Shown in pieces: positions 14,556 to 42,975 of a DNA stretch of 64,000 bases (its first letter is position 1; each line of letters begins with the position of its first letter). The notes under the pieces were generated by a model. It saw only the letters and a list, made by a program, of their open reading frames with translations. It had not been told where the DNA came from and made no database searches. The position numbers were made by a program, and so were the translations under genes. The DNA lies in the sequence record SRR31156797_707. One strand, 5' to 3'.

Positions 14556-15662
14556 ATGTGTCGTATTGGTGCTATTAAATCAAAAAACTACATTCACCCT
14601 TCCAAGGCTCTTACACTAATGAGATCAATGCAGAAAGGACATGACAATTCCGGCTTTGCAATGATCATGCAGGACCTTGGCGGGCGATTCGCAAATTATA
14701 AAGAATTACCGATTCTTTCCATGGCTTGCACGGACGAAGGAACTAAGATCGCTGAAGATATTCTTCACGAAGTTGGCTTCTCACGTGTTATGCAGTGGAA
14801 CCCTGAGATAAATCCAGACCCAGAGCTTGACATAGAGCCTATGCCTGACTATATCTTTCAGGTTCTCCACTACCCTAAGAGCTATAAGTACGCTCCGGAT
14901 GAAGAGAGAGAGGAGCTCCTCGTTGAAACGAGACTCCGCATAAGAGAAGCGCTTGAGGCTACCGATGACGGCTACGTCTATTCTTTCTGGCCTGATGTTC
15001 TCACACTGAAAGAGATCGGTGACCCGACTGATATCGGAACATACTTTAACCTATGGGAAGAAGATGAGGACTTCACTGCTAAGATTATCACTGCTCAGTG
15101 CCGTCAGAACACTAACTACGACATCGTACGTTACGCTGCTCACCCGTTCTTCCTTCAGGGATATACTGCTCTCGCTAACGGTGAGAACACATTCTACGAG
15201 AAGAACAAAAACATACAGAAGAGCCTTTATAAAGGATATATCGGTTTCGAATCCGACTCACAATGTTTCCTTTACACACTCCACTACATCCACAAGATGC
15301 TCAAGTGGCCTCTTCAATATTACAAACACACCATCACTCCTCTTCCGTTCGAAGATGCGCAGAGAAGAGATGATAACGAAATCCTCGGCAGCATCCGTGC
15401 GGCACTTGGAAACCTTGAAATCAACGGACCAAACACTATTATCGGCGTTCTCCCTGACGGAACCATGTTCAACACCTGCGACGCTAAAAAGCTCCGCCCT
15501 GTTGTTATCGGACGTACAGAAGACACTGCTGTTCTCGCATCAGAGGTAACAGGTCTCAACGAGATCCTCCCTGAGCGTGACTGGTCAACAGATATATATA
15601 CTAACGAACGTGAAACTGTTGTAATCACTAACGATCTGGAGGTGCAGAGATGGCAACAATGA
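14556..15662 (+). CDS. glutamate synthase, class II glutamine amidotransferase subunit
   Basis: N-terminal M-C nucleophile; RQNTN, AHPF, NGE, SDS, NGP, KKLRP, ASE motifs. Confidence 0.88.
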   Translation: MCRIGAIKSKNYIHPSKALTLMRSMQKGHDNSGFAMIMQDLGGRFANYKELPILSMACTDEGTKIAEDILHEVGFSRVMQWNPEINPDPELDIEPMPDYIFQVLHYPKSYKYAPDEEREELLVETRLRIREALEATDDGYVYSFWPDVLTLKEIGDPTDIGTYFNLWEEDEDFTAKIITAQCRQNTNYDIVRYAAHPFFLQGYTALANGENTFYEKNKNIQKSLYKGYIGFESDSQCFLYTLHYIHKMLKWPLQYYKHTITPLPFEDAQRRDDNEILGSIRAALGNLEINGPNTIIGVLPDGTMFNTCDAKKLRPVVIGRTEDTAVLASEVTGLNEILPERDWSTDIYTNERETVVITNDLEVQRWQQ

Positions 15663-17290
15663 AGGTAAACGACATCTCCAGAGACGATCTGGATTGGAAA
15701 ATTGCATACAGACCTGACCGATGTACACTCTGCGGTAAATGCGTGGCTTCATGCCCGTTCAAAGCTATCGAAGTTGGCGTTGAAAAACGCAGAAAGGTAG
15801 TTAGCGACCACTTCACGCCAGACCCAAAGGTAGAATTCAAAACTATCCCTGTAATCAGACAGGTTGTAAACGTATACGATTTCTGCCGTGGATGCGGACT
15901 TTGCGAAAGAGTATGCCCTAACGAAGCTATCAATCCTGAGCGTAACACAGACGCCAGAATGGGCGCAAAATACCGTGCAACAGTGGCAGACCCATATAAA
16001 AGAGGCGGACGTGCGAACCTATCAACAGGCAACCGCACACTCGACAAGATCAGAGTTGGTCGTATCTCTCAGATGACTGACCCATCTCTCGACGCTCTCA
16101 GACACACATTCGATATGCTCGCACCATTTGGTAGGGTTTTACCTGCTGATGAGATGCCATTCGACATTCAGAACGGCAAGCTTGTTATGAACGATGCAAC
16201 ACCGAAGGTAAACTGGATTTACCCTATCGTAATCGGTGACATGTCCATCGGTGCTCTATCATGGAGAATGTGGGAAGCTATGGCGATCGCTACTGCCTAC
16301 CTGAACGAAGAGTGCGGTATCCCTATCCGTATGTGTTCCGGTGAAGGTGGTGTACCTGTCAGACTTCTTAAGTCGAGATACCTTAAGTACACAATTCTTC
16401 AGATCGCTTCCGGTCACTTCGGCTGGAACCGTATCATAAACGCTATGCCTGATATGAAAGAGCTTCCTGGCGGAGTTCTTATCAAGATCGGTCAAGGTGC
16501 GAAACCTGGTGACGGCGGTCTCCTTCAAGCTAAAAAGGTTGCACCGCACATCTCTGAGATTCGTGGAGTTCCGAAGGCTGACCTTCTCTCTCCTCCGAAC
16601 CATCAGGGGCTATACTCTATTGAGGAATCAGTACAGAAGATGTTCCTCTCATTCAATGCGGCATTCAAATTCGAAGTGCCTGTAGCTATTAAGGTGGCTG
16701 CATCATCCACTTCGGTTTCCGTATATAACAACCTGCTCCGTGACCCTTACAACATCGTCGGCGGTTTCTTCCTCGACGGTATCAACGGCGGTACGGGTGC
16801 GGCTAACGAGATATCACTCGACCACACTGGTCACCCTATTGTGTCTAAGCTTCGTGACTGTTACAACGCAGCTGTTCACCAAGGTAAGCAAGGTCAGATT
16901 CCACTCTGGGCTGCTGGCGGTCTCGGTGCTAACTGGAACCTCGCCGCTGACGCTTTCAAGATGATGGCGCTCGGTGCTAACGGTGTTTTCACCGGAAAGC
17001 TTATGCTCCAGCTCGCTGGTTGCGTTGGTAACGACAAAGGTAAGTGTAACGCATGTAACACTGGTCTCTGCCCTGTAGGTATCTGTACTCAGAACCCTGC
17101 ACTGGTTAAGAGACTCGACATAGACAAGGCGGCAGAAGCGATTGTTAACTACTTCATCTCAACTGATTACGAGCTGAAGAAGATGCTCGCTCCTATCGGT
17201 AACAGCTCACTCCCTGTTGGGCGTTCAGACTGTCTTATCTCTGAAGATAAGGCTGTGGCTGATCAACTTAACATACAGTACGGCTGCTAA
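15650..17290 (+). CDS. glutamate synthase FMN-binding subunit with N-terminal 2x[4Fe-4S] ferredoxin
   Basis: Two CxxCxxCxxxCP; MSIGALS, SGEGG, QIASG, KIGQGAKPGDGG, SPP-x-H, GGTGA, CPVGICTQ. Confidence 0.9.
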   Translation: MATMKVNDISRDDLDWKIAYRPDRCTLCGKCVASCPFKAIEVGVEKRRKVVSDHFTPDPKVEFKTIPVIRQVVNVYDFCRGCGLCERVCPNEAINPERNTDARMGAKYRATVADPYKRGGRANLSTGNRTLDKIRVGRISQMTDPSLDALRHTFDMLAPFGRVLPADEMPFDIQNGKLVMNDATPKVNWIYPIVIGDMSIGALSWRMWEAMAIATAYLNEECGIPIRMCSGEGGVPVRLLKSRYLKYTILQIASGHFGWNRIINAMPDMKELPGGVLIKIGQGAKPGDGGLLQAKKVAPHISEIRGVPKADLLSPPNHQGLYSIEESVQKMFLSFNAAFKFEVPVAIKVAASSTSVSVYNNLLRDPYNIVGGFFLDGINGGTGAANEISLDHTGHPIVSKLRDCYNAAVHQGKQGQIPLWAAGGLGANWNLAADAFKMMALGANGVFTGKLMLQLAGCVGNDKGKCNACNTGLCPVGICTQNPALVKRLDIDKAAEAIVNYFISTDYELKKMLAPIGNSSLPVGRSDCLISEDKAVADQLNIQYGC

Positions 17291-17305
17291 GGGAGGGGAT
17301 GAGAA

Positions 17306-19642
17306 ATGGCTAATAAAACTGCAAAAATAAACGGTATTGTTGATGGAAAGAGGATTTCCACTCAGAAGCTCCTCTATGAAGTATATGACAAGCTGAACGA
17401 AGGCGTTAAAGAGTTCGAAATCGACGCTAACGGTCAGCACAACATCGGCGGTTCCCTCTGGGACGCTGATGGTGCAACACTAAAATTCAAAGTGACTAAC
17501 CCGGGACAGCGTGTCGGCTCTATGGGTATGTTCGGTACAGAGATAGAGATCATCGGTTCTGCTCCTGCGGATGTGGGCTGGCTTAACGCCGGTGCTAACA
17601 TCGTGCTCAAGGGTGACGGTGGTGACACTACTGCTCACTGTGCGGCTACTGGTAATATCTATGTAGCGGGTAGAACAGGAACACGTTCCGGCGCACTGAT
17701 GAAGGACGACCCGAAATTCCCTGCTCCTGAGTTCTGGGTACTTAGAAGCACAGGCTCTTTCAGCTTTGAGTTCATGGGCGGCGGTATAGGTGTTGTCTGC
17801 GGTTTCGACTGTGATGAGATGGACTCTATCATGGGCGACAGAAGCTGCATCGGTATGGTTGGCGGTACTGTCTATTTCCGAGGCAAAACAAAAGGTCTCG
17901 CAGAAGACGTATGGGTCATGGATCTCGATGCTAATGATAAAGAATTCCTTACAGAGGGTCTCCCTAGATTCCTCGAAAAAATAGATAGAAAAGACGCTCT
18001 CGATAAGCTCACAGACATGAGCCAGTGGAAGAAGGCAGTAGCCAAAACTTACGAAGAGCGCAAGATGAAGTCACTCATGCCTATGCGTGATTTCAGACAC
18101 GAAAGATGGGTCGAAGGCGGAATCTTTGGCGACATCATCGATGAAGATTACTATGTAGCACAGTACGTTGAGACTGGCGAATACAGACTTAAATACCCTG
18201 AGTGGCAGAATGCGCACTACTCTGCACCTTGCGAGTATAACTGCCCTGTCTTCATCCCGACACAGAAGCGTATCGCACTGCTCCGTCAGGACAAAGTTCA
18301 GGAAGCACTCGAGCTTGTACTAGAATACAGCCCGTTCCCTGCATCCGTTTGCGGTCAGGTCTGCCCTAACCTCTGTCAGGATATATGCTCACGTAAGCAT
18401 GTGGACATCCCTGTTAAGATCAAAGAGCTCGGAGCTCTCTCACAGAAAGCTGAGGCGAAAGGCTTCGATGCACCTGAAAAGAAAGAGAAGGTCGCTATCA
18501 TCGGTTCCGGTGGTGCAGGTCTCACAGCGGCTTGGCACCTTCGCAAGATGGGCTATAAGGTTGACGTTTTCGAAGAAGACTCAGTGGTAGGCGGTAAGCT
18601 GAAGCAGGTTATCCCTAACGAGAGGCTCGCTGCTGACATCCTCGAAACAGAGATTCAGAGAATCCTCGACAAGGGCGTTAATGTTCACACTAATACTCTT
18701 GTAGACAAGGATAAGTTCAATAAACTTACAAAAGACTTCGATGCTGTTGTAATAGCTGTCGGTGCTCACATACCTGTGGTCATCCCGTTCGAAGGGCACG
18801 AAAAGCTTGTTAAAGGTCTCGACTTCCTAAAGGAAGTTAATAAAGGTCAGAACCCGAAAGTCGGCGAAAAAGTTGTCGTTATCGGTGCTGGTAATGCGGC
18901 TATGGACGTTGTTATCGGTGCATACGAGATGGGCGCTAAGGAAGTCACAGCTATCGACATCCAGAAGCCTGCGGCGTTCGATGTTGAGATCGAGCATGTT
19001 AAAAAACTCGGTGCAAAGATACTCTGGCCACGCTTCACAGACAAGGTTACAGACGAAGGCGTTGTCCTCAAAGACGGCACACTCATCGAAGCTAATACGG
19101 TTATAATCGCCATCGGCGACAGACCAAACTTCGAGTTCCTCGAACGTGACTGGCTCAATGAGAAAGGGCTTGTGAAGATGAACGAATTCCTTCAGTGCGA
19201 TGGCAACGAAAAAGTTTTCATGACTGGTGACGCCATCACTCAGGGGCTTTTCACACACGCACTCGGCGACGGACGTAAGGCAGCCATCAATATCGATAGG
19301 ATGATCAACGGTCGTAAACTAGACAATTTTGAGAAAGCTCCTGTTATCCCGCAGGATAAGATAAAAGACGAATATTACCATCCACTTAACGCTACTCGTG
19401 TTTCCGATATGGACGCTGGTGACGAGACAATGCGTTGCATGAGCTGTGGTTTCTGCCGTGACTGTTCTTTCTGCCTTGAGGTTTGCCCTGAGCAAGCTAT
19501 CACAAGGACAGAAAACCCTGACGGCACATTTGAGTATCTGTCTAATCCATCGAAATGTATCGGATGCGGAATATGCTCCGGCGTTTGCCCTTGCGGCGTT
19601 TGGACTATGCACGACATGGTCGACAAAATGATGGAGTCCTAG
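17306..19642 (+). CDS. glutamate synthase GXGXG domain fused to GltD-like FAD/NAD(P) oxidoreductase and C-terminal ferredoxin
   Basis: GXGXG repeats (GQRVGSMG, GSFSFEFMGGG); PCEYNCP, CGQVCP, IIGSGGAG, IGAGNAAMD; two C-terminal CxxCxxCxxxCP. Confidence 0.88.
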   Translation: MANKTAKINGIVDGKRISTQKLLYEVYDKLNEGVKEFEIDANGQHNIGGSLWDADGATLKFKVTNPGQRVGSMGMFGTEIEIIGSAPADVGWLNAGANIVLKGDGGDTTAHCAATGNIYVAGRTGTRSGALMKDDPKFPAPEFWVLRSTGSFSFEFMGGGIGVVCGFDCDEMDSIMGDRSCIGMVGGTVYFRGKTKGLAEDVWVMDLDANDKEFLTEGLPRFLEKIDRKDALDKLTDMSQWKKAVAKTYEERKMKSLMPMRDFRHERWVEGGIFGDIIDEDYYVAQYVETGEYRLKYPEWQNAHYSAPCEYNCPVFIPTQKRIALLRQDKVQEALELVLEYSPFPASVCGQVCPNLCQDICSRKHVDIPVKIKELGALSQKAEAKGFDAPEKKEKVAIIGSGGAGLTAAWHLRKMGYKVDVFEEDSVVGGKLKQVIPNERLAADILETEIQRILDKGVNVHTNTLVDKDKFNKLTKDFDAVVIAVGAHIPVVIPFEGHEKLVKGLDFLKEVNKGQNPKVGEKVVVIGAGNAAMDVVIGAYEMGAKEVTAIDIQKPAAFDVEIEHVKKLGAKILWPRFTDKVTDEGVVLKDGTLIEANTVIIAIGDRPNFEFLERDWLNEKGLVKMNEFLQCDGNEKVFMTGDAITQGLFTHALGDGRKAAINIDRMINGRKLDNFEKAPVIPQDKIKDEYYHPLNATRVSDMDAGDETMRCMSCGFCRDCSFCLEVCPEQAITRTENPDGTFEYLSNPSKCIGCGICSGVCPCGVWTMHDMVDKMMES

Positions 19643-20453: not shown

Positions 20454-20837
20454 CTATGCACAATCGCTAATCTTCGAAAGCAAGCCGTCTTTGAATTCGA
20501 AAAGTGAAAAACCTTCAACAGACATTGTTTCGCCAGCTTTTACACCGTTAGGCAGGTCAATAGCGAACTCTGCGTTAAAGCCTATATCTACCCTAACTTG
20601 AATCTCTTCGTGAGTGATTTTCTTTATGCTCTGCTCACGCACTCTGAATAACTGCAATGTCTGTGTGGCGAGTTGTATGAGTGAGTTTTTACCGTAAATC
20701 TCCATGTTCACCACGTCGCCAGCCATATTTCGGAATACAACCTCGTCGTGCGCACAGGCAACCATGCCGTCCACATCCTTCGAGTTGTAAGCTTCTATAT
20801 ACCTCATAATTAATTGTTCTTTCTCTAATTCAGTCAC
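20454..20837 (-). CDS. NTF2-like / SnoaL-like domain protein
   Basis: YIEAYN-x-x-DVDGM...V-x-F-x-N...G-x-S-x-FEF-x-DG; AGGAG RBS 6 nt before GTG. Confidence 0.8.
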   Translation of the reverse strand: MTELEKEQLIMRYIEAYNSKDVDGMVACAHDEVVFRNMAGDVVNMEIYGKNSLIQLATQTLQLFRVREQSIKKITHEEIQVRVDIGFNAEFAIDLPNGVKAGETMSVEGFSLFEFKDGLLSKISDCA

Positions 20838-20850
20838 ATCATACTCCTAG

Positions 20851-20876
20851 AAAAAGCCCGCCAAAAGACGGGCTTT
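20851..20876 (-). terminator. intrinsic terminator immediately upstream of the SnoaL-like gene RBS
   Basis: Minus strand AAAGCCCGTCTTTTGGCGGGCTTTTT, then CT-AGGAG. Confidence 0.8.
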
Positions 20877-20880
20877 AAGT

Positions 20881-20955
20881 TTATGCGAATTTACGCTTAA
20901 AATATTTTTTCAGTTTGTCCCAAACACTTGGGACATGACATAAAAGTCAAAGCAT
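20881..20955 (-). CDS. candidate 24-aa selenopeptide MLULLCHVPSVWDKLKKYFKRKFA
   Basis: ATG CTT TGA CTT TTA TGT CAT...GCA TAA; UGA at 20949-20947; SECIS-like hairpin starts 11 nt downstream; no obvious RBS. Confidence 0.45.
20916..20935 (-). promoter_or_regulatory. SECIS-like hairpin
   Basis: TGTCCCAA-GTGT-TTGGGACA perfect 8-bp stem; G-first loop 19 nt after the UGA. Confidence 0.5.
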
Positions 20956-20976
20956 TTTTATTACTACACTTTTTTA

Positions 20977-21091
20977 ATATGCTACGCCTAAAACTTTCCG
21001 GCTCCAGATTGTCGCCTTCCAAATACTACATAAGGCGAGTAACCGAGCCGACGAACGTGGAACTACAGCCAACGTTCACAGCCTAACATAT
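20977..21091 (-). repeat. multi-stem structured intergenic element (REP-like repeat or ncRNA)
   Basis: Outer stem ATATGTTA/TAGCATAT; inner stems GAACG..CGTTC, CGGCTC..GAGCCG, TCGCCTT..AAGGCGA. Confidence 0.5.
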
Positions 21092-21111
21092 CGCCCGCAG
21101 GTGCTACCTGA

Positions 21112-22041
21112 TCAGCCGTCAGCGTTGATGGAGATGATAAGCTCTTTAAGCACATCCTCAGCCTTATCGTTAGCCACCTGACAGGTACCAGCGTTCATAT
21201 GACCGCCGCCGCCGTAACGGAGCATCAGCTCGCCGATGTTTGTATTGGATGATCTATCGAAGATAGATTTACCTGTCGCGAAAACAGTATTCTGCTTTTT
21301 AAGCCCCCACATAACATGTATGGAGATATTCTGCTCAGGAAAAAGAGCGTAAACTACGAACCTGTTACCAGTGTATATGATCTCTTCCTCACGAAGGTCG
21401 AGAACAACGAGGTTTTTATGTGTTGTCGCACATCTGTTGATCTGGGTGATGCACTGGATCTGCTGGCTAAGGTAAAGCTCTGCCCTCTCCTTCACATCAG
21501 GATCTTCCATAATCTTATCAATAGGCTGATCTTTACAGAGGTCGATAAGCTTCATCATGAGGTCGTAGTTTGAGATTTTGAAATCTCTGAAACGACCGAG
21601 ACCGGTTCTAGCATCCATAAGGAAGTTCATAAGATCCCAGTCCCTAGGGTTAAGTACCTGGTCCTGTGTGAAATCCGCAGAGTCACCTCTGTCTACCGCT
21701 TCCATCATTTCTACAGAGATAGAAGGAAACTTTTTCTCGCCGCCGTAGTAGTTATAAACAACTCTCGCAGCAGATGGAGCATCCGGATCAATTATATGGT
21801 TGTCCTTCTCTTCCACTCTGATAGTTTCGCTAAGGTGGTGGTCGAAAGCGATGTGTACGCCTTCTACGTATGGAAGGTTAGTGGTAATGTCGTTTCCAGT
21901 GATCTCAATAAGCCCATCTTGCATGTCCTTTGGGTGAACAAATTTAATGTCGTCGATGAGGTCAAGGTCCTTCAGCAGAACTGCGCAAACGAGTCCGTCG
22001 AAGTCACTTCTGGTAACAAGTCTAAATTTGTTATCAGCCAT
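21112..22041 (-). CDS. DHH family phosphoesterase (NanoRNase/pAp phosphatase-like)
   Basis: RSDFDG, FDHH, PSAARV, GGGGH motifs. Confidence 0.85.
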   Translation of the reverse strand: MADNKFRLVTRSDFDGLVCAVLLKDLDLIDDIKFVHPKDMQDGLIEITGNDITTNLPYVEGVHIAFDHHLSETIRVEEKDNHIIDPDAPSAARVVYNYYGGEKKFPSISVEMMEAVDRGDSADFTQDQVLNPRDWDLMNFLMDARTGLGRFRDFKISNYDLMMKLIDLCKDQPIDKIMEDPDVKERAELYLSQQIQCITQINRCATTHKNLVVLDLREEEIIYTGNRFVVYALFPEQNISIHVMWGLKKQNTVFATGKSIFDRSSNTNIGELMLRYGGGGHMNAGTCQVANDKAEDVLKELIISINADG

Positions 22042-22627
22042 TTGTATCTCCTGTATATTTTTTTGCTAAATCGTAATCGTCTCTTGTATTAATATTTATA
22101 AACGATTTTTTCTCATTTTCCGAGCTAAAAAGGGAATCTTCACCTAAATAAACTGTATCGAGTTTTTTGACTGTCTTCATAAGACTAAACTCACCCTTCT
22201 CTACAGCAGAGTCAAGGTTCTGTATAATATTTGTATTATAACACGCATATAAAGGATGTACCTTACTATCTATCTCGGGCATTGCACATACGTGATCACC
22301 AAGAGAATTTAAAAGCTTTTTAACGTGCTCCGGCTCAGGGAAAGGTACATCTGCGGCAACGATGAATATAGGCGTCTGAAAGTGTTTCAAGGCTGTCAGA
22401 ATACCAACCATCGGGCACTGCACCTCATAAGCGTCTGTAATACAGGGTACATTAGTAAAATTGTATTTTGAACAATCTTTCGCCACTATTATAATATTAT
22501 CAGCAATAGGGGAAAGAGCGTCTATCGGGTGCCGAATGAGAGGCTTGCCGTCAAAAAGCTCTAAGGTTTTATCACCGTCAAACCTTCTGCTCTGACCGCC
22601 CGCCATGACAGCTATATTTATTTCCAC
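22034..22627 (-). CDS. mobA: molybdenum cofactor guanylyltransferase
   Basis: MAGGQSRRF-x-x-DK, P-x-x-GI, DVP, HPL-x-A-x-Y, NINT. Confidence 0.9.
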   Translation of the reverse strand: MEINIAVMAGGQSRRFDGDKTLELFDGKPLIRHPIDALSPIADNIIIVAKDCSKYNFTNVPCITDAYEVQCPMVGILTALKHFQTPIFIVAADVPFPEPEHVKKLLNSLGDHVCAMPEIDSKVHPLYACYNTNIIQNLDSAVEKGEFSLMKTVKKLDTVYLGEDSLFSSENEKKSFININTRDDYDLAKKYTGDTNG

Positions 22628-25031: not shown

Positions 25032-26237
25032 TTACTCACCAATTTTGCAAGGCTGAGTGTCACAATTAACGCCAGCATCTACGAAATAGAATCTATCAAG
25101 ATCAGCAGGCTTGCAATCGTCAGCGAGGAAGAAGTAAGTCTCTCCAGCTCTACCGCCAGATGCACAATGGAAAACTACTTTTCCTTCAGGCATTTGTGCG
25201 AGGAAAGCATCACAACCTTTAGCAACTTCTTTAGAACTTACCTTTACTGTACCAGGGATAGCGCCAGCAGCGATTTCGTCAGCGTTACGAACGTCAACAA
25301 CAGTTACGCCAGCAGCAGCTCTTTTAGCTGGGTCAAGAAGGTTAGAGATAAAGAACTCAGTAGTAACGATTCCTGGCTCTTCAACAGGAAGACCAGCAGT
25401 GGATGCAGCAGCTTTCTTCATAGGAGCAGCGGCAGCAGCGCCACCTTTAGACATTGGGAGTCCAGCTTTTTTCCATGCAGGTGCGCCAGCAGCGAGTACG
25501 AATACTTTTTTGTATCCCATCTTAACCATGTGGCGAGCTACAGCGTGAGACTTCTCACACTTGAATCCGCCGCAGAAAGTAACTGCAGGAGCTTTTTTAT
25601 CTTTAGGAAGGTTGCCAACAAACTGAGCAAACTTTGTATCAGGAACTACAACAGAACCAGTGATTGTGCTCTTCTTAAACTTTCTTTCAGGACGTGCGTC
25701 GATGAAAGTAGCTTTTTTCTTGTAGAGCTTCTCAGCGCCTTTAAGAGTAACTTCGTTGTAGTTACCAGCTTTGTTCCAAGCAGGCTGACCAACGAGGAAA
25801 ACTTTTACATTTGTGTAACCGAGAGATCTAAGTTTCTTAGCTACGATAAGCGATTTTCCACATTTAACACCACCGCAGTATGTTGCGATAAGTGCATCTT
25901 TAGGAAGATTAAGTTTCTGGAAAGCAGGAAGGTACATGTCCATTTTTGTATCAGGAATAAGCTTAGCTGTAGGAACGTGACCACCGTCAAACTTTCTAGC
26001 AGGACGAGCATCTACGAGAGTTCCTCTCTTAGCATTCCATACACCGTTACCAACGATAGCTTTAGCTGTAGCGAGATCGATCATCTCAAATCCAGCAGCC
26101 TTAACTTTGTCAGCTACACTAGCTTTTCCGTGTCCACCATCAGCAGGCTTAACTTCTTTAGCAGCCTGTCCACAACCGAGAGCCATGAGTGCAACCATAA
26201 GTGCAACTACTATGAGCATCTTGTTCATAAAACGCAT
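25032..26237 (-). CDS. triple rhodanese-domain sulfurtransferase lipoprotein
   Basis: Lipobox LGC; three D-A/V-R repeats with loops YCGGVKCGKS, FCGGFKCEKS, HCASGGRA; GGAGG 6 nt before ATG 26237. Confidence 0.88.
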   Translation of the reverse strand: MRFMNKMLIVVALMVALMALGCGQAAKEVKPADGGHGKASVADKVKAAGFEMIDLATAKAIVGNGVWNAKRGTLVDARPARKFDGGHVPTAKLIPDTKMDMYLPAFQKLNLPKDALIATYCGGVKCGKSLIVAKKLRSLGYTNVKVFLVGQPAWNKAGNYNEVTLKGAEKLYKKKATFIDARPERKFKKSTITGSVVVPDTKFAQFVGNLPKDKKAPAVTFCGGFKCEKSHAVARHMVKMGYKKVFVLAAGAPAWKKAGLPMSKGGAAAAAPMKKAAASTAGLPVEEPGIVTTEFFISNLLDPAKRAAAGVTVVDVRNADEIAAGAIPGTVKVSSKEVAKGCDAFLAQMPEGKVVFHCASGGRAGETYFFLADDCKPADLDRFYFVDAGVNCDTQPCKIGE

Positions 26238-26449
26238 AAACAACCTCCAACGTTTTGTTTCTTCTTTACTTATAACATTGTTCTATTTGCTGTATATTAA
26301 TATCTGAATAGTAGTATATAATAGTATTCATATCTTAATATACTTGCATATTATTGTTTACTTAACAAACCTTTACAAATACCACACTCGTAAAGACATT
26401 TTTCAACAACAGTTTGATTATACATCATATTACATGTTTCGCAATGTTT

Positions 26450-26461
26450 ATTGTATACAAT
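26450..26461. promoter_or_regulatory. ATTGTATACAAT palindrome (GntR-type operator candidate)
   Basis: Perfect 12-bp palindrome upstream of the rhodanese gene; recurs in the window. Confidence 0.6.
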
Positions 26462-26476
26462 CTTTAAAAAACTTAC

Positions 26477-26505
26477 AAAAAAAAAGGCGACCAAAAGGCC
26501 GCCTT
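26477..26505 (-). terminator. intrinsic terminator of oxidoreductase operon 1
   Basis: GGCGGCC/GGTCGCC stem plus 9 U on minus strand. Confidence 0.8.
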
Positions 26506-26528: not shown

Positions 26529-27740
26529 TTAGTGATGGTCAGGTGTATCAAGTTTAAGGAATTTTTCAGCACTGAAGTAAAGTACAAGAGCTGTACCTAT
26601 TCCGAGCATAAAGATTCCCCACTCACCAGCAGAAGCTGAGTAAGCAGCAAGACCACTAGCATCAGTTATAACACCGGAACCGAGGTCACCGGATCTCATA
26701 ACAGGAAGCTGTCCAGCAACTACGAAGTCAAATCTTGTGAAGAAAAGTCCTACCATGAAGACAAGTCCTGCAAGACCGAACATCTTAGTGTTCCCTTTAG
26801 CTACAAGAAGAATGAGAAGAGGAACTATGATAGCAAGTCCCATTTCGCCAATCCAGAAGTTTGCAGCAAGCGGACCAGAGATAAGAGCCATAACAGACTC
26901 ATAAGCGCCGTCAGGAGCGTTAAAAAGGGATGAGAGGATTTTCCAAAGATAGAGGAACATCATCATACCAATACCACCGCCCATAAGCTTAGCGAGAGAT
27001 TTCATAGGTTTTTCAAGTTCTGCTGGGATGTTAAACTTGTATACAATGTTATGCACGAGCATAAGTAGTCCTGCACCCGCTGTGATACCTGATATCACAA
27101 GGAATGTGGAGAAATATATGCCGTGGAACCAAGGTCTTGCACTCAGTGAACCGAATACAAATCCGAGGTTAGATGTAGCAAGTGTACCAACAAGAAGAGC
27201 AAGGAAACCGAGAATAGCCGCAAGTTTGTGGTCTTTCTCAGTAGGGTTAGACTTGAATACGAGGATAAGCTCGAATGCAAGAATCACAAGCTCTATACCG
27301 TAGAAGACACCCATCCAGAGGATAGGAGCTTTAAGGTTAGGAGTAAGGATCATGTATATCATCATTCTGATAGGGTGACCGATCTCCATAAGGATCTGTG
27401 TAAAACCAGCGATGAGAACGAAAGTAGCGAGTACAACGATTCTTCTGCTGATTTTGTTATAAGACTCAAATCCAAAAGCGTGTCCGAGACCGCCGATGAA
27501 TGCGAGACCTGTAGATGTAATTACGAAGTAAGCGTAAGTAGCGATGAGCATTCCCCAAGGCACTTGTCTTGTTACGCCGTACATTTCGCCGTGACCTTTT
27601 ATGAAAACCATAAGAGCTGTCACAGCGCCAATTCCTGCAAGCACAAGTCCGATGAGGATAAGTGGCAATACAGGGATATCTTTATTGTAAGTTATAAGCC
27701 CAGCGAGAGGGCTTTTCTTAGTTTCTGCGTGTGCTGACAT
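26529..27740 (-). CDS. NrfD/PsrC-family membrane anchor subunit (operon 1)
   Basis: VPWG-x-x-I-x-x-Y-x-YFV-x-x-STG, EIGHP-x-R, ARPWFHG, RFDFVVAGQ; about 10 TM. Confidence 0.9.
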   Translation of the reverse strand: MSAHAETKKSPLAGLITYNKDIPVLPLILIGLVLAGIGAVTALMVFIKGHGEMYGVTRQVPWGMLIATYAYFVITSTGLAFIGGLGHAFGFESYNKISRRIVVLATFVLIAGFTQILMEIGHPIRMMIYMILTPNLKAPILWMGVFYGIELVILAFELILVFKSNPTEKDHKLAAILGFLALLVGTLATSNLGFVFGSLSARPWFHGIYFSTFLVISGITAGAGLLMLVHNIVYKFNIPAELEKPMKSLAKLMGGGIGMMMFLYLWKILSSLFNAPDGAYESVMALISGPLAANFWIGEMGLAIIVPLLILLVAKGNTKMFGLAGLVFMVGLFFTRFDFVVAGQLPVMRSGDLGSGVITDASGLAAYSASAGEWGIFMLGIGTALVLYFSAEKFLKLDTPDHH

Positions 27741-27754
27741 TATTATCCTCCACC

Positions 27755-28309
27755 TTACTTAATGTAGAAAAGTCTTGGCTTAGTCTTCTTATCAGCCTTA
27801 AGCTGGTAAGTAGCATTTTTGCCTTTAAGTTTAGCTACTTCTGAGTTTGGATCATTAAGATCACCAAAAGTACGAACCTTTGTAGGACATGTTTCTACAC
27901 ATGCTGGCTCTCTACCTTCTGCAAGTCTGTGGTAGCAGAAAGTACATTTCTCGATCGCATGGTGTGCATGTGAGTCGAATCTAGCGTCGTATGGACAAGC
28001 TGTCATACAAGCTTTGCAAAGGATACATTTCTTGTAGTCGATAAGTACAACACCCTCTTCTGTCTTATAAGTAGCAGAAGTAGGACATACTGTCGCACAA
28101 GGTGTATTTTCGCAGTGCTGACACTGAGATGGCTCAAATTCCATGCTAAGGTTAGGATATGTTCCCTGAACAGGCTTTTGTGTTACCCAAATTCTATAGT
28201 TATCGTCACCAGGGTGAATAACATTTTCGAATTTGCAGGCAACAGTACATGCTTTACAGTTCAGGCATTTTCTTGCATCAAGTACAATTCCGAATTTCTT
28301 TTCGCTCAT
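27755..28309 (-). CDS. 4Fe-4S dicluster electron-transfer subunit, PsrB/NrfC-like (operon 1)
   Basis: CLNCKACTVAC, CQHCENTPCATVCP, CILCKACMTACP, KCTFC...PACVETCP. Confidence 0.93.
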   Translation of the reverse strand: MSEKKFGIVLDARKCLNCKACTVACKFENVIHPGDDNYRIWVTQKPVQGTYPNLSMEFEPSQCQHCENTPCATVCPTSATYKTEEGVVLIDYKKCILCKACMTACPYDARFDSHAHHAIEKCTFCYHRLAEGREPACVETCPTKVRTFGDLNDPNSEVAKLKGKNATYQLKADKKTKPRLFYIK

Positions 28310-28320
28310 TGTTGCCTCCG

Positions 28321-30654
28321 TTACGCCTTAGTAATTGTTACAAATGTTTCGTGCATCGCAGCGTTACCTGAGATAGGCTCGATGTAATCTTCGAGAATCT
28401 CAGCCTGTGAAGCACCTTTCTTGTAAACATAGCTAAGCTGAGGAGAGAGACGACCGAATCCGTGTGCGTAGAATACGCAGTCAGGGCGGATCTTCTCAGT
28501 TACATAAACCTCAAGCTCCTGCTCACCTACTTTACTTGTTACTTTAACTCTTTCGCCGTCCACGATACCGAGTTTTTTAGCTTCTGCTGTGTTCAGCCAG
28601 AGAGTGTTCTCTTTCTGAATTTCCCAGAGGAAACCGTTGTTCTGTGTACCTGTGTGTGTGTTCCATCCGTGACGACCGAGGATAAAGCGGTATTTACCCG
28701 GCTCAGGCTGGATAGGCGCTTTGTAAACAGGAAGCGCATCGAGACCTTTTGATGGGTATTTAACGTTAGCAAGCTCTATCTTACCTGTTCTAGTCTTAAA
28801 TCTGAAACCAGGCTTACGTGTTTTACCGTATGTAGGTTTATCAGAGATATAGAACAGACCTTCTTTCATCATCTGCTCGTAAGCACCAGGGTAGCTCTTA
28901 AGCTGAAATTTGATGTAATCTGTCATCGGCTTATTAAGAATGCCGTCTAAGATGTCTGATTTGTAATCTTCAACATCCATCTCGTCTGCATCATCCCAAA
29001 GCTCAGGAATTTTGATCATTTCGTTAGCTACACCAGCAGCAATCTCGAACATAGACTTAGTCTTGAACACAGGCTCTACAACCGGCTGACGGAATGTTGC
29101 GATCGGCCAGATACCAGAGAGTGAGTGAACAGCGTCCCAACGCTCAAGATATGTTGACTCAGGAATAACGAGGTCAGCGTAGTGAGCAACCTCTGTCATC
29201 TGGATATCAATAGCACAGATGAATTCCATCTTGTCGATCATCTTCATAGTTTTCTGTCTGTTAGGAACAGCTTCGATGAAGTTCTGCTTGTAGATAACCA
29301 TTGCATCTACTGTGTATGGCTTACCTTTGAGAACTGCTTCTCTCATACGGAGCCATGAACCATCTTTCTCAGAAAGATAAGCACATGAATCTTCTGGAAG
29401 ACCAGCTTCTTTTCTTTCATCATCAGGAAGATAGTTTTCGAAATCTCCAAAAGAGCCAACATCCATTCTGCCCTCAGACTGCTCGAAGAACGGGAAGAGT
29501 ACATCATGCTTGTTAAGCTTAACAGGAGACTTAGGTACGATAGCGCCTTCTGTATCCCAGCAGCCGCAAATAGCTGTGAGGATAGCACAGGCACGACGGA
29601 AATAAACGTCGTTTACATACCAGCTAGTTCTACGGCCTGGGTAAGCAACTGAACGTGGAGCGTATCTTGCGAACTCTCTAGCTGTCCAGTAGATCTCTTC
29701 TGCAGAGATCTCACACTCGTTCTCAGCCCACTCTGGTGTGTACTGCTGAACGTGTGCAACAAGCTCATCAAAACCGTGTGTATATTCTTTAACGAAGTCA
29801 TCGTTATAGAGTTTTTCTTTGATGATTACATTTATAAGAGCAAGCACAAATGCAAGGTCTGTACCAGGCTTCACAGGGTACCATTTGTCAGCTTTCGCTG
29901 CAGTAGCTGTGAATCTTGGGTCGAGATATACAATCTGCTGTCCCTTAGGTCTGTTTTTCTGAATATCAATTGAGTCAGGAGTTACGATAGCTTCCGCTCT
30001 GTTAGCACCAAACATGATAGCGAACATAGCATTGTGCATATCCGCATCAGGGAAAGCACCATATACAGAAGACCAGCCCTGAATAACAGAAGAAAGACAA
30101 AGGGTCGGGTGTCTTACTGTGTTAGTAGAACCGTATGACTGTACGAGAAGGTGGAACGCATGTTCCTGAAAACCTTCAGAAGATGCGAAGAGTACAGAAG
30201 ATCTGTTCTCGTGCTTCTTCTTCTGCTCAGCGAGTTTATCTGCGAGCATTTTGAAAGCTTCATCGTAAGATATTTTCTTCCACTTACCCTCGCCTCTTTT
30301 GCCAACTCTGACAAGAGGAGAAGTAAGTCTTTCGTGGTTATAAGGCTCTTCAGCACCCGCGTTACCACGAGCACAAAGCATAGCACGGCTTTTAAAGAAC
30401 TTAGGGTTAGGGTTAAGTTTTTTAATTTTACCGTCAACTACGTGAGCATAAAATCCACACTTGTTAACACACATCTCACATGAAGATGGAATGTGCTTTT
30501 CGCCTTTTTCACCAGTAGGTGTCGGAGCATCGTGACCACTGCTTGCTACAGCCTTAAATGTTGTAAGGTTTGCAGCAAAAACACCAGCAGCAACTGCACC
30601 ACCTGAAGCCGCGAGAAATTTTCTACGGCTCAGATTCATACCGGAAAGCTTCAT
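28321..30654 (-). CDS. molybdopterin oxidoreductase catalytic subunit, PsrA/PhsA/SrrA family (operon 1)
   Basis: Tat motif SRRKFL; CEMCVNKC...LCARG; RHPTLC; PGTD, PESTYLER, HTGTQN; start corrected to 30654 after GGAGG. Confidence 0.9.
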   Translation of the reverse strand: MKLSGMNLSRRKFLAASGGAVAAGVFAANLTTFKAVASSGHDAPTPTGEKGEKHIPSSCEMCVNKCGFYAHVVDGKIKKLNPNPKFFKSRAMLCARGNAGAEEPYNHERLTSPLVRVGKRGEGKWKKISYDEAFKMLADKLAEQKKKHENRSSVLFASSEGFQEHAFHLLVQSYGSTNTVRHPTLCLSSVIQGWSSVYGAFPDADMHNAMFAIMFGANRAEAIVTPDSIDIQKNRPKGQQIVYLDPRFTATAAKADKWYPVKPGTDLAFVLALINVIIKEKLYNDDFVKEYTHGFDELVAHVQQYTPEWAENECEISAEEIYWTAREFARYAPRSVAYPGRRTSWYVNDVYFRRACAILTAICGCWDTEGAIVPKSPVKLNKHDVLFPFFEQSEGRMDVGSFGDFENYLPDDERKEAGLPEDSCAYLSEKDGSWLRMREAVLKGKPYTVDAMVIYKQNFIEAVPNRQKTMKMIDKMEFICAIDIQMTEVAHYADLVIPESTYLERWDAVHSLSGIWPIATFRQPVVEPVFKTKSMFEIAAGVANEMIKIPELWDDADEMDVEDYKSDILDGILNKPMTDYIKFQLKSYPGAYEQMMKEGLFYISDKPTYGKTRKPGFRFKTRTGKIELANVKYPSKGLDALPVYKAPIQPEPGKYRFILGRHGWNTHTGTQNNGFLWEIQKENTLWLNTAEAKKLGIVDGERVKVTSKVGEQELEVYVTEKIRPDCVFYAHGFGRLSPQLSYVYKKGASQAEILEDYIEPISGNAAMHETFVTITKA

Positions 30655-30718
30655 ATAGGGACCTCCTAGTATTTTCAATAACATTATCAGTTATTTATAT
30701 AATTCTGCATAAAATTAT

Positions 30719-30742
30719 TTTGTATACGGTATACAATATACA
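30719..30742. promoter_or_regulatory. tandem GTATAC/TATACA operator overlapping -10 of the operon 1 promoter
   Basis: TTTGTATACGGTATACAATATACA; minus-strand TTGCAT(30763-30758)-17-TATATT(30740-30735). Confidence 0.55.
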
Positions 30743-31458: not shown

Positions 31459-32415
31459 CTATTCCAGACCTATAGCGTGGATTGCATTCTCTCTGAGCGG
31501 CTTATCAAGCTTTGACGCTGCTCCTGTAACTGTTGGGTTGCAAAGAACGAAGAAGCCGTGCTTCTCCATAACTTTCGCAGCTTCATTTGAGAGGAGGTAT
31601 TTTGCAAATTTAACCGCCATCTCTCTGTTCTGCACAGTAGAAGGGATAGTAAGGCTGTAATAGATACAGGCAGCTTTGATCTTGTCCATGTCCATATCTA
31701 TATTCTTGTTCTCTATCTCAATGTCCTTATACATATCTGAGTATCTTGCGGAGAAGAGATTGATTTCTTTCGGAAGAGATACATACTTAAAGCCCTTCTC
31801 TTTAGCGTAGGTCTTATATGTAATGATATAGTCAACCTTACCGGAGATAAGATCGTTCACAACTGCCATATCGCTTTTACGCTCGTAAAGTGCGTTTTTA
31901 AGAACCTTATCTTTGAATCCTTTAACTCCGTAGAGCTTCTCTGCCATAGCGAGAACCATCATTGATCTGTAACCGCAAGGCTCGTCGTCAGCGGCAGATA
32001 CGCCCATCTGAACACCACTCTTAGTAATTGTCTTGTACCAGTTCTTAGAATTTACAGAACCGGAGTGTTTACTCTTTGATGTATAGCCGAGAACCATTTC
32101 GTTCTTAGCAAACATCATATTCCAATCAGCGAACTTATTTTTAACAAGAAGCTCATCAATAACTGTGTAGTCAGCACTGATAACAAGGTCGATAAACATA
32201 CCGTAGTCTTTGACCTCCTTTGCGGCCTTACCGCTGCATGTGCTTTGAGTCTTGATAGTCACCCCTTCTTTCTTTTCGAAGTTTTGAGCAAGTTCATTAA
32301 CCACACCTTCGAAGCTTCTTGGCAGTGTAACTTTGAGTATTGTCTCAGAGTACGCGGACCCTGCGCCCATAACCATAATGAGCATCACCAGTAAAGAAAT
32401 CGCTAAATGTCTCAT
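31459..32415 (-). CDS. WtpA/ModA-like oxyanion-binding protein (divergent, no permease nearby)
   Basis: SADY-x-x-ID, FAKNEMVL-x-YT, NWY, PCGYR, Y-x-x-LP-x-EINL, I-x-Y-x-LTIP. Confidence 0.8.
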   Translation of the reverse strand: MRHLAISLLVMLIMVMGAGSAYSETILKVTLPRSFEGVVNELAQNFEKKEGVTIKTQSTCSGKAAKEVKDYGMFIDLVISADYTVIDELLVKNKFADWNMMFAKNEMVLGYTSKSKHSGSVNSKNWYKTITKSGVQMGVSAADDEPCGYRSMMVLAMAEKLYGVKGFKDKVLKNALYERKSDMAVVNDLISGKVDYIITYKTYAKEKGFKYVSLPKEINLFSARYSDMYKDIEIENKNIDMDMDKIKAACIYYSLTIPSTVQNREMAVKFAKYLLSNEAAKVMEKHGFFVLCNPTVTGAASKLDKPLRENAIHAIGLE

Positions 32416-32554
32416 AATAAACACCTCTCGGTTTAATAAAATTGTTATATGTCTCTTTGCCCTGCGCTTTTCTACCTGCGCATAAGCTCATAACCATTTT
32501 GTTAAGTTATTGTCATTATTGACTTTTTAGCCTATGACAAAAACTCAGATACTT

Positions 32555-32606: not shown

Positions 32607-33797
32607 TTAGTCCTCAGTGAGATTAAGAAACCTCTCTGCGGCTAGGTATAGTGCTGCACACGCTACGATAGCACCTGCAACAATTGTTATCTCAGAAGCA
32701 CTCGGTGTATAAACAGCAAGCCCTTCAACAACGCCCTGAACACGGGAACCGGCAGTAGCCTCTCTCATAGGGACAAGCTGACCAGCAACAACAAGGTCGT
32801 ATCTCATAAAGAAGATACCGACAACTGCTGAACAGGATGCAATAAGAGCAGCCTTAATACTGTTACCCTTAGTAGCAAGGATAATAACGAACGGAATCAC
32901 CATTCCGAGCAGTATCTCAAAGAACCAGAAGTTGACAGACAGAGGACCAGCGATCATCGCCATCACTGTCTCATACTTCTCAGGCGGAGCACCATATACT
33001 GATGTAAGAACTTTCCAGATATCAAAGAAGATGATGATACCGAGGAGAAGTCCGAAAATCTTCGCAATACCGAGGAGAGCGTCCTTAGCCTTCTGCGGCA
33101 TGTTAGCCTGTCCGCCGTATGCGATGTTAAAGATAATGATAACAAGCGCACATCCTGAGATGAGAGCGGAAAGGATGAAGTAAATCGGAAGATACGGTCC
33201 GTGCCAGAAAGGTCTTGCCTCGAGGAAACCGAATACAGCACCAAGGTTAGAGTGAGCTGAGATACCCGCCACAAAACCAGCGAGACCAGCATAGAAAGCT
33301 CCCTTATGGTTATGTGTCATAAGGAAGTAGAACTCAACTATGATACAGAAAAGGTATAAGCCGTAGAGTGTACCCATCCACCAGATAGCTGATGCGAGGT
33401 TAGGAGATATAACATTATATATCGCCATTCTTATAGGGTGACCAATCTCTGTAGCGATCACTCCGAATCCACAAAGGATAGTGAGTATCGCAAGGATTAT
33501 CGCTCTTTTCCCGATTACTTCGTACTTTTCAATGTTGAATACGTGCCCCATTGAAGATATCAGACAGAGTCCTGTACTTGATACAACAAAGAACACATAT
33601 GTAGAGATCAGAAGCCCCCATGGAACAGACTTAGTTGTTCCGAGGGAAGCAGCATGACCCTTGGTCAAAATATTAAACACACCGTATAAGCCGACAAGAG
33701 CTATCGCACCGAGTACGATAATGAGCGACATAGGTATGCGTGTATTGCCGTTAAACATTTCTGAACGGCTTTTTGTTACTTCTGCATGACTGGACAT
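32607..33797 (-). CDS. NrfD/PsrC-family membrane anchor subunit (operon 2)
   Basis: VPWGLLISTYVFFVVSSTG, EIGHP-x-R, ARPFWHG, RYDLVVAGQ. Confidence 0.9.
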   Translation of the reverse strand: MSSHAEVTKSRSEMFNGNTRIPMSLIIVLGAIALVGLYGVFNILTKGHAASLGTTKSVPWGLLISTYVFFVVSSTGLCLISSMGHVFNIEKYEVIGKRAIILAILTILCGFGVIATEIGHPIRMAIYNVISPNLASAIWWMGTLYGLYLFCIIVEFYFLMTHNHKGAFYAGLAGFVAGISAHSNLGAVFGFLEARPFWHGPYLPIYFILSALISGCALVIIIFNIAYGGQANMPQKAKDALLGIAKIFGLLLGIIIFFDIWKVLTSVYGAPPEKYETVMAMIAGPLSVNFWFFEILLGMVIPFVIILATKGNSIKAALIASCSAVVGIFFMRYDLVVAGQLVPMREATAGSRVQGVVEGLAVYTPSASEITIVAGAIVACAALYLAAERFLNLTED

Positions 33798-33808
33798 CAG
33801 TTCCTCCC

Positions 33809-34366
33809 TTATTTAATGTAGAAGAGTTTAGGGTTAGTACCCTTTTCAGGTTTCTGAACCTCTGTTGATTCTGTCTGAAGGAGCTTTGTTCCCTCATCAC
33901 TCTTATCCATAAGGTTAGTAAAGACCCTAACCTTCGGAGGACAAGTTTCAACACATGCAGGTTCTCTGCCTTCTGCCAGTCTGTGGTAGCAGAATGTACA
34001 CTTATCTATTGCGTGTATCTCTGTGTTCTCATAACGAGCGTCGTAAGGACAAGCTGTCATGCAGTATTTACAAAGGATACATTTGTGATAATCCACAAGC
34101 ACGATACCGTCGTCTGTCTGGTAAGATGCTCTTGTAGGACAAACATGTACACACGGCGGGTTATCACACTGCTGGCACTGGCTAGGGCGAAACTTTCTGC
34201 TGATATTAGGGAATACAGCTCTATCGTTCTCAACTTCGCCAACCCAGTTACGGTAAGCATAGAAGCCTGCCGGTACACTGTTTTCGCACTTACATGCTAC
34301 AGTACATGCTTTACAATCGATGCAGGTCGCATCATCAAGTATTATTGCGTATTTTTTATTACTCAT
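33809..34366 (-). CDS. 4Fe-4S dicluster electron-transfer subunit (operon 2)
   Basis: Four Fe-S motifs, colinear with 27755-28309. Confidence 0.93.
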   Translation of the reverse strand: MSNKKYAIILDDATCIDCKACTVACKCENSVPAGFYAYRNWVGEVENDRAVFPNISRKFRPSQCQQCDNPPCVHVCPTRASYQTDDGIVLVDYHKCILCKYCMTACPYDARYENTEIHAIDKCTFCYHRLAEGREPACVETCPPKVRVFTNLMDKSDEGTKLLQTESTEVQKPEKGTNPKLFYIK

Positions 34367-34378
34367 AGGTCATCATCC

Positions 34379-36703: not shown

Positions 36704-36742
36704 ATACGCCTCCGAATTGGATGAATAAAATTGTATATCCAA

Positions 36743-40694: not shown

Positions 40695-40780
40695 TGCAAT
40701 AAACCTATGTATAGTAGTCTCTTATCTTTAACAAATATATTTTTTTTTTAAAGATTTGTAAAGGGATTTTGCAAGAAAAA

Positions 40781-40797
40781 TGTATATTGTATACAAT
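40781..40797. promoter_or_regulatory. TGTATATTGTATACAAT operator candidate
   Basis: Exact reverse complement of 42976-42992; upstream of the torD-like gene. Confidence 0.65.
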
Positions 40798-40803
40798 TAA
40801 ATG

Positions 40804-42764: not shown

Positions 42765-42975
42765 AAACGCCTCCACAAATATTAGACATATGTAAAGATA
42801 CCGTGAACAATTATACGTTGTCAAAGGAATCTACATAAATATAACACCTTTTTTATCCTATTTTTACATTACTGTCAATAAAAGTAATTATATAGACACA
42901 TATACTGATTAATGAATACTTAGTAAGCTTATGTGGTTGAAGATGAATTTTCACAAAGGGCAAAATATTCAGAAA

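Follow-up and report, generated by a model that had tools for sequence, protein, structure and literature searches.

A conserved 24-residue frame with an in-frame UGA as a candidate for an undescribed family of tiny selenoproteins in Deferribacterales

Results

The minus strand of a 64,000-nucleotide (nt) stretch of DNA from sequence record SRR31156797_707 (the window, by which we mean this whole stretch at its full length) carries a short frame, here called the mini-frame, that reads ATG-Leu-TGA followed by 21 sense codons and TAA (20881..20955) and gives, on direct reading, a 24-residue product if the TGA is decoded as selenocysteine (Sec, U). The ATG occupies 20955-20953 and is followed by CTT, then by the TGA at the third codon, which is the proposed Sec codon (20947..20949, minus strand; 20949-20947 in reading order), and the frame closes with TAA at 20883-20881. 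With TGA written as U the translation is MLULLCHVPSVWDKLKKYFKRKFA, and both frame and peptide agree exactly with those described in a first-pass annotation made from the letters of the sequence. The mini-frame lies in a 274-nt gap between a gene for a 309-amino-acid (aa) protein (21112-22041) and a gene with a SnoaL_2 domain (20454-20837), all on the minus strand.

Codons 7/8-14 of the mini-frame form a hairpin (20916..20935, minus strand) that, judging from a local fold and from the relatives described below, resembles a selenocysteine insertion sequence (SECIS). Its arms (20935-20928 and 20923-20916) make 8 perfect pairs around a GUGU loop (20927-20924) with a local dG of -11.5 kcal/mol, and the UGA is separated by 11 nt (20946-20936) from the first pair and by 19 nt from the loop. 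The perfect 8-bp GUGU hairpin 11 nt past the UGA that had been claimed is therefore present by coordinates as well as by fold.

Within the window alone the mini-frame would be a weak case: of the 33 ATG-NNN-TGA sites present, 7 have at least 21 open codons after them, and four SECIS-type rules are satisfied at 30 of the 2535 TGA triplets (1.2%). A hairpin as good as that of the mini-frame is found at a single one of these 2535 sites, which is the mini-frame site itself, and a search of the window for other genes with an in-frame TGA yielded no other evident one. These counts are what would favour a chance open frame that happens to coincide with an ordinary hairpin and has no function. We consider this very unlikely, as conservation of the mini-frame in four other sequences places it well above chance. 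The genes that flank the five loci are about 74-85% identical at the DNA level, a divergence that argues against the sequences being recent copies of one another, and across it the frame has taken no frame-breaking change and has a non-synonymous rate below that of both neighbouring genes.

These relatives were found using the 309-aa protein as an anchor. A scan of reference genomes, in which 80 of 593 confirmed loci were kept, gave one close anchor match, L001 from a Deferribacterales metagenome-assembled genome, at 89% identity; the other loci of this set are 68-75% identical and belong to many phyla, and the 79 cross-phylum loci among them lack the motif, a looser pattern included. Within the order the anchor is found in 17 of 63 genomes, and the mini-frame lies directly downstream of it in three of these 17 loci (L094, L096 and L097), the remaining 14 having different genes at that position. 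Five sequences were compared as a result: the window, L001/L094 (one site, in the closest relative, G001), L096 (G020), L097 (G021) and L136 from a metagenome contig, where G001, G020 and G021 are Deferribacterales genomes. All five loci share the same string of genes, consisting of a divergent mobB, mobA, the 309-aa protein (a homolog of PggH), the mini-frame and the SnoaL-like gene. At L136 (1442-2960) the alignment of mobA is broken into three pieces and that of the PggH homolog into two, a sign of frameshifts that stem either from decay or from errors of assembly; in this contig the SnoaL-like gene and the mini-frame are both intact.

A degenerate pattern in which TGA, TGC or TGT was permitted at codon 3 matched four of the 68 genomes of the phylum, namely the three syntenic sites and G036, and a reversed-pattern control matched none of the 68. 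The G036 match was rejected as chance, being situated inside another coding frame and containing a second TGA. The same pattern picked out 23 stretches in the metagenome collection, one of which is a true copy (L136, with TGA) and 22 of which are chance matches. When a profile of the five peptides was run against all six frames of the 68 genomes with stops read through, it returned the three known sites with E values of 2e-14 to 2e-12, each with one TGA, and the next best match had an E value of 0.002. An exchange of UGA for a Cys codon, which the first-pass annotation had suggested looking for, came up in neither the metagenome pattern matches nor the 68-genome profile search.

The five products are 24, 32, 26, 24 and 24 residues long and share the pattern M-L-U-[LV]-[LI]-C-[HE]-[VL]-P-x-[VLF]-W-x-[KR]-[LM]-x-x-[YF]-[FL]-K-[KR]-K, with M1, L2, TGA3, C6, P9, W12, K20 and K22 invariant in all five. 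Leu2 is encoded by four synonymous codons (CTT, CTC, TTG or TTA), and the Lys/Arg exchanges are between AAA and CGT, CGC or CGA and so involve all three bases. Frame 1 has the fewest non-synonymous codons in 10 of 10 pairs, and differences peak at codon position 3. There are no insertions or deletions within the mini-frame in the five sequences, and the spacers on either side vary in length (2 to 156 nt upstream). The most informative pair is L097 and L136, which encode an identical 24-residue peptide with 11 differences in 75 nt, all 11 synonymous; among random sets of 11 substitutions, 1 of 200,000 preserves the translation. The constraint extends to each part of the frame, as 7 of 7 differences are synonymous in codons 1-14 (15 of 200,000), including the Leu codons that flank the TGA, and 4 of 4 in codons 15-25 (127 of 200,000). 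Counted as codon differences, the same pair has 9 synonymous and 0 non-synonymous changes in the mini-frame, against 105 and 17 in the first 280 codons of the PggH homolog and 36 and 41 in the SnoaL-like gene, so that the non-synonymous rate of the mini-frame is lower than that of either adjoining gene.

Purifying selection has acted on both sides of the UGA. An in-frame UGA that is conserved among orthologs, with coding constraint both up- and downstream of it, is a mark of a bacterial selenoprotein gene, and it is what the relatives show, with frame and UGA kept in all five sequences and synonymous changes on either side of the TGA. The alternative frame MSCPKCLGQTEKIF (frame +2), which the first-pass annotation had offered as a caveat, does exist in the window; it is not viable, as it reads ATG-TGA in L096, and all 10 codon changes that separate L097 from L136 in this frame are non-synonymous. 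Frame +1, which lacks a start codon, was likewise rejected.

The same comparison bears on the reading in which the UGA is a stop, leaving an ATG-Leu-TGA mini open reading frame (ORF), and the downstream frame is translated separately, through re-initiation or a non-canonical or downstream start, or in which the UGA is passed by near-cognate read-through with no Sec. Codon 15 is ATG in four of the five sequences (CTG in the window) and would give a basic peptide of 10-18 residues, and the window copy lacks a ribosome binding site. UGA followed by C is a leaky context in E. coli, and this context is found in three of the five sequences. Initiation at codon 15 cannot by itself explain the conservation and was rejected as a sole explanation, because codons 1-14 are constrained on their own. 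There is also no conserved ATG, GTG or TTG at codons 4-14 in the five sequences, and as the constraint spans the TGA, translation of codons 4-14 in frame 1 requires decoding of the UGA. Both versions of this reading, moreover, leave the spacing and loop of the hairpin, which are like those of the selD SECIS described below, without explanation. We regard it as improbable.

The local structure could alternatively belong to a non-coding RNA, such as a small RNA derived from a 3'-untranslated region (UTR) or a structured spacer of the mobA-PggH transcript, that merely mimics a frame. A hairpin, an A-rich stretch and a terminator in succession resemble the layout of Hfq-type small RNAs, and the arms of the hairpin co-vary, as the codons before Pro9 and after Trp12 change together such that pairing is preserved. 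Between 20843 and 20991 there are also weak, sub-threshold Rfam matches to small RNAs and leaders, the best being Ysr49 (E 0.05, with 23.6 bits where 95 is the gathering score) and others including Phe_leader (22.3 bits against 55) and Trp_leader (16.4 against 41). These matches are driven by the terminator, and neither the mini-frame region nor the window as a whole contains anything at gathering score except a tRNA-Val. Constraint on RNA alone does not predict a third-position periodicity in 10 of 10 pairs or the 11 of 11 synonymous differences between L097 and L136, and the frame is free of insertions and deletions between spacers that vary in length. This explanation appears slightly less probable still than termination at the UGA.

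The hairpin was scored against the bacterial SECIS model using our own implementation of its rules and a local ViennaRNA fold rather than bSECISearch. The model, as given in the Fig. 2 legend of a 2026 review (PMC13188914), calls for a loop of 3-9 nt, an upper stem of 4-16 bp, a G at one of the two opening positions of the loop, 16-37 nt between UGA and loop, and a minimum free energy of -7.5 kcal/mol or lower. All five sequences satisfy the geometric rules and four of the five satisfy the energy rule, so that the hairpin has been kept in the relatives at a like distance from the UGA. The five hairpins have 6-10 pairs, lie 17-19 nt from UGA to loop, and have loops of GUGU, GUCUU, AGUU, AGGUUUAUG and GCUUA, each with a G within its two opening positions. 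When the frames were recoded so as to preserve the peptide, 12, 196, 67, 533 and 108 of 2000 recodings were as stable as the real hairpin in the five sequences, the window being the one with 12. Codon choice therefore leans towards the hairpin, with a strong bias in the window and a weak one in L097. A column-wise consensus fold of the five frames is poor and uninformative because the register of the hairpin slips by one base.

No Sec-type formate dehydrogenase (FdhA) was found in G001, G020 or G021, and for this reason selD was used as the SECIS benchmark of the clade. In G001, G019, G020, G021 and G026 selD carries an in-frame TGA at G-U-A-A-K, and in four of these five genomes the TGA is followed by a SECIS of 6-8 bp that has GGC as its loop, a spacing of 17 nt to the UGA and an energy of -8 to -12.6 kcal/mol. 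The hairpins of the mini-frame have the same geometry as these selD elements. At the selD loci themselves (L090 and L170-L173, from G001, G021, G026, G020 and G019) selD is itself a selenoprotein gene in this clade. The known selenoproteome of G001, G020 and G021 may be small, given that no Sec-type formate dehydrogenase was found in them.

The closest relative, G001, has the complete set of genes for Sec that the first-pass annotation had named as a check, with selB at 293 bits (cut-off 242), selA at 524 bits and selD, with its own in-frame TGA, at 339 bits, all above the curated cut-offs, and tRNA-Sec (selC) at 68.8 bits against a gathering score of 47. Across the order, selA is above its cut-off in 28 of 63 genomes, including all three that carry the mini-frame, and G020 and G021 also have selD with an in-frame TGA, the searches for selB and selC having been confined to G001. 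There is no tRNA-Sec within the window. A 92.8-kb contig from run X1, the probable source sample, contains a gap-free 98-nt match to the tRNA-Sec of G001 with 9 differences; with its 1.5 million records X1 may represent a mixed sample, and we take the match as a hint rather than as proof that the organism of the window has the tRNA.

The peptide has two distinct parts in all members of the family. Residues 1-12, which carry U3 and C6, are hydrophobic (mean Eisenberg value 0.47-0.63), in a stretch that is too short to span a membrane, and residues 12-24 contain five or six Lys/Arg with a helical moment of 0.55-0.60. The net charge is +5 or +6 throughout, in agreement with the basic amphipathic tail proposed earlier. 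The proposed U-x-x-C-H motif and its likeness to a heme c site fared less well: U3 and C6 are invariant, but the window, L097 and L136 have His at residue 7 where L001 and L096 have Glu, and the CxxCH reading was rejected on this account. Attachment of c-type heme would also call for export, and a motif that begins at residue 3 leaves no room for a signal peptide. A lipoprotein or signal-peptide reading was rejected in the same way, as five residues only precede Cys6. With U read as C, NCBIfam release 20.0 and Pfam-A gave no family at E up to 10, in a search to which a 24-residue query lends little power.

How the mini-frame might be initiated differs between the loci. In L001, L096 and L097 its ATG lies 2, 8 and 8 nt past the stop codon of the 309-aa gene, and this proximity suggests coupled translation. 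L136 has a spacer of 32 nt with AGGTG five bases upstream of the ATG. In the window the ATG is separated from the stop of the PggH homolog by a strongly folding 156-nt insert (20956..21111, minus strand) that is specific to the window. The insert is G+C-richer, and the gap as a whole folds with a z score of -3.45. It has no second copy in the window, no counterpart in G001, G019, G020 or G021 or at the other four loci, and no match in Rfam. It may represent either a small mobile element or the gene of a small RNA.

Past the stop codon there is a terminator-like hairpin with a T run (20851..20876, minus strand), which is G+C-rich, has 10 pairs when its A-U extension is included, and is closed by a UUUU loop. 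It starts 4 nt past the stop, so the frame does end just before a terminator-like structure as had been noted, and it ends 13 nt before the GTG of the SnoaL-like gene. A simple terminator scan did not call it, which we attribute to the stem's A-U extension taking up some of the T run. An equivalent hairpin is present at all five loci, and the stop codon of the mini-frame lies 2-5 nt before it (window, L097 and L136) or in its loop (L001 and L096). The distance from the T run to the start of the SnoaL-like gene ranges from 13 to about 85 nt, and a crude scan found no sense-strand sigma-70-like site between the terminator-like hairpin and this start at any of the five loci. A short frame that ends at or in a terminator-like hairpin, with no promoter by this crude scan before the next gene, is the arrangement of an attenuator.

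This arrangement raises the possibility that the mini-frame is a selenium-sensing leader peptide, in which the UGA is decoded as Sec and the main job of doing so is to regulate the SnoaL-like gene. Under sufficient selenium the ribosome would reach the stop codon and block the terminator hairpin, allowing transcription into the SnoaL-like gene, and when selenium is lacking release at codon 3 would allow the terminator to form. In keeping with such a link, the mini-frame and the SnoaL-like gene always occur together in the five loci, and the mini-frame is missing upstream of five SnoaL homologs elsewhere in the phylum (G026-G030) that are more distant. A pure sensor would have no need, however, for residues far from the UGA to be conserved as protein, as C6, K20, K22 and the Lys/Arg exchanges are, and ordinary genes often end with a stop codon near a terminator. 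We identified no alternative antiterminator structure, no systematic search having been made for one, and the promoter scan considered sigma-70-type sites only. We hold it unlikely that regulation is the main job of the mini-frame, although this is the strongest of the alternatives. As it also requires Sec decoding, it extends rather than excludes a translated selenopeptide. The position of the stop codon and the lack of an intervening promoter mean that completion of the frame could suppress termination and so tie SnoaL expression to selenium supply. That the mini-frame serves both as the smallest natural selenoprotein and as a dedicated selenium sensor for the SnoaL-like gene is a further step, and we give it somewhat lower odds than the leader function.

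The genes around the mini-frame form a string on the minus strand that runs mobA-PggH-mini-frame-SnoaL. It begins with a mobA-like gene (22034..22627) that overlaps the start of the PggH homolog. The PggH homolog (21112..22041, minus strand) matches PDB 7d62 at E 1e-136, and its protein shares 64-89% identity with its counterparts in the order and about 70% with those of many phyla, yet at E up to 0.001 it is matched by no model of Pfam-A or NCBIfam. PggH is reported to be a pGpG-specific phosphodiesterase of Vibrio cholerae (PMC8861645). The downstream SnoaL_2-domain gene (20454..20837, minus strand) encodes 127 aa and has an AGGAG at 20848-20844.

An island for sulfur or selenium respiration had been placed about 4 kb from the mini-frame, and this is roughly correct in that candidate genes lie 4-16 kb away, all of them scoring below equivalog cut-offs. 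They include two tandem three-gene operons on the minus strand (26529-30684 and 32607-36742) for PhsA/PsrA-like molybdoenzymes, each with a 787-aa catalytic subunit, an Fe-S subunit of 184 or 185 aa and a subunit of 403 or 396 aa without a family match. The two share repeats of 72-77% identity at a spacing of about 6057 nt. A rhodanese-domain protein is encoded beside them at 25032-26243, as is a WtpA-like binding protein at 31459-32424. An A/T-rich intergenic repeat with a palindromic TTGTATACAA core is found at 26447-26485, 30712-30742, 40767-40800 and 42962-43011, beside several operons, and may be the operator of a shared regulator. On the plus strand, three genes at 14556-19642 resemble a split glutamate-synthase-like enzyme, with products of 368 aa (no Pfam match), 546 aa (Glu_synthase and 4Fe-4S) and 778 aa (GXGXG, pyridine nucleotide-disulphide oxidoreductase and 4Fe-4S).

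Discussion

By computation, the frame, its start codon, its UGA and its hairpin are conserved, and the machinery for Sec is present in the clade. We infer from this that the UGA is read as Sec rather than as a signal for termination or for another kind of read-through, and we propose that the mini-frame represents an undescribed family of tiny selenoproteins whose product is a real, translated selenopeptide. We put the probability of this, on sequence evidence, at about 0.62. In silico, the central claim of the first-pass annotation, an unannotated tiny selenoprotein with a basic amphipathic tail, has thus gained support from the Sec machinery, from conservation and from the SECIS rules.

The model that we put forward is as follows. 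Nucleotides 20955-20881 of the minus strand would constitute an unannotated gene for a selenopeptide of 24 residues (24-32 in the relatives). Translation would start at the ATG, with initiation in the relatives probably coupled to termination of the PggH homolog, and SelB together with Sec-tRNA(Sec) would decode the UGA two codons after initiation. SelB would be recruited by the SECIS hairpin formed by codons 7/8-14, which lies within the same frame. The product would begin with a dozen hydrophobic residues that contain the U-x-x-C pair (positions 3 and 6) and continue as an amphipathic helix that is strongly basic. Such a peptide may sit at the membrane surface and use its selenol/thiol pair for redox chemistry or for the binding of soft metals or chalcogens; this role is a guess, albeit one that fits an operon with mobA beside molybdoenzyme genes for sulfur respiration.

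Several observations weigh against this model. The window copy has no Shine-Dalgarno-like sequence before its ATG, as the first-pass annotation had warned, and the 156-nt insert has cost it the close coupling to the upstream stop. That it has neither coupling nor a recognisable ribosome binding site is our chief ground for doubting good expression of this copy. The comparison comprises five sequences from a single narrow clade, and hence few independent events, and in one of them, L136, the mobA and PggH genes are frameshifted. No credible homolog with Cys in place of Sec, the customary supporting criterion, was found among the 23 metagenome stretches or in the 68 genomes. The hairpin of L096 is weak (-4.8 kcal/mol) and fails the energy rule, 533 of 2000 recodings of L097 fold as well as the real sequence, and the register differs by one base between two subgroups. 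The codon for Pro9 (CCN) is complementary to that for Trp12 (UGG), so that constraint on the RNA could account for some of the conservation of the peptide. Finally, we found no precedent in the literature for Sec at codon 3, where the P-site tRNA carries a dipeptide.

If the peptide is made, it would be by far the smallest selenoprotein described and so shift the lower bound on the size of such proteins. It would demonstrate SelB-dependent recoding as early as two codons past initiation, and the known families would gain one that lacks a Cys form. The case would further suggest that surveys of small ORFs in Sec-using organisms should permit an in-frame UGA. Discovery of bacterial selenoproteins relies on homology to known families and on Cys/Sec pairs, and the ORF-prediction step described for BSepDB has a 200-nt minimum, so that a 75-nt frame with no such relatives would be invisible to pipelines of this kind. 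Should the sensor reading hold true, a leader peptide with a Sec codon would be a type of attenuator not described so far. The operon with mobA, beside molybdoenzyme genes for sulfur respiration in a Deferribacterales lineage, offers a concrete system in which to look for function, and at 24 residues the peptide is small enough for chemical synthesis and direct biochemistry.

Among known regulatory systems, the arrangement at the end of the mini-frame resembles that of the E. coli pyrBI-type attenuator, in which a leader frame runs up to or into a terminator ahead of the next gene. In both, a short frame has its stop codon at or within a terminator hairpin, and the next gene follows just downstream; to our knowledge, the known leader-peptide attenuators involve neither UGA nor Sec. 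A second parallel is the translation-coupled control by selenium of fdhF-Sec transcription reported in Treponema primitia (PMC3892789). There, as in the leader reading of the mini-frame, decoding of a Sec UGA decides whether downstream sequence is transcribed. The UGA in T. primitia lies inside the regulated enzyme gene, whereas here it would lie in a dedicated mini-frame that ends at an intrinsic terminator.

As for the peptide, bacterial selenoproteins with a UxxC motif include the Sec forms of thioredoxin, glutaredoxin, DsbA-like and Prx-like proteins listed in the family table of the 2026 review (PMC13188914). The mini-frame shares with them an in-frame UGA, a stem-loop in the coding region that conforms to the bacterial SECIS model, a Cys three residues past the Sec, and occurrence in genomes with selA, selB, selC and selD, in its case G001. 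Those selenoproteins are folded domains of roughly 80 residues or more for which Cys homologs exist, whereas the peptide of the mini-frame has 24-32 residues with Sec as residue 3, belongs to no fold family and has no Cys homolog that we could find. MxCxxC is the metal-binding motif of heavy-metal-associated (HMA) domains, which have a fold of about 70 residues. The M-x-U-x-x-C of the mini-frame has the spacing of the MxCxxC loop, in a resemblance confined to six residues and with no Pfam match at E up to 10. Sec forms in the review's table include a cation-transporting ATPase with UxxC (PMC13188914). In the passages of the same table that we covered, no entry resembles a 24-residue peptide with Sec at residue 3 (PMC13188914), and we came across no such case in literature searches on selenoproteins from small ORFs, on the selenoproteomes of Deferribacteres and on Sec-dependent attenuation, although supplementary lists of predictions could contain the family.

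The decoding that we propose is as in any bacterial selenoprotein gene, and it is the family itself that matches nothing known. The nearest precedent for a small selenoprotein that was overlooked is SelW of Campylobacter jejuni, which is encoded in a transcript annotated as the small RNA CJnc60 and was confirmed by Ribo-seq and mass spectrometry (10.1101/2022.11.09.515450). With 80 residues, a known family (SelW, CxxU) and a Sec that is not N-terminal, it differs from the peptide of the mini-frame. Both are small, both lie in an RNA that seems non-coding, and both would have been passed over for the same reason, that the UGA was taken for a stop.

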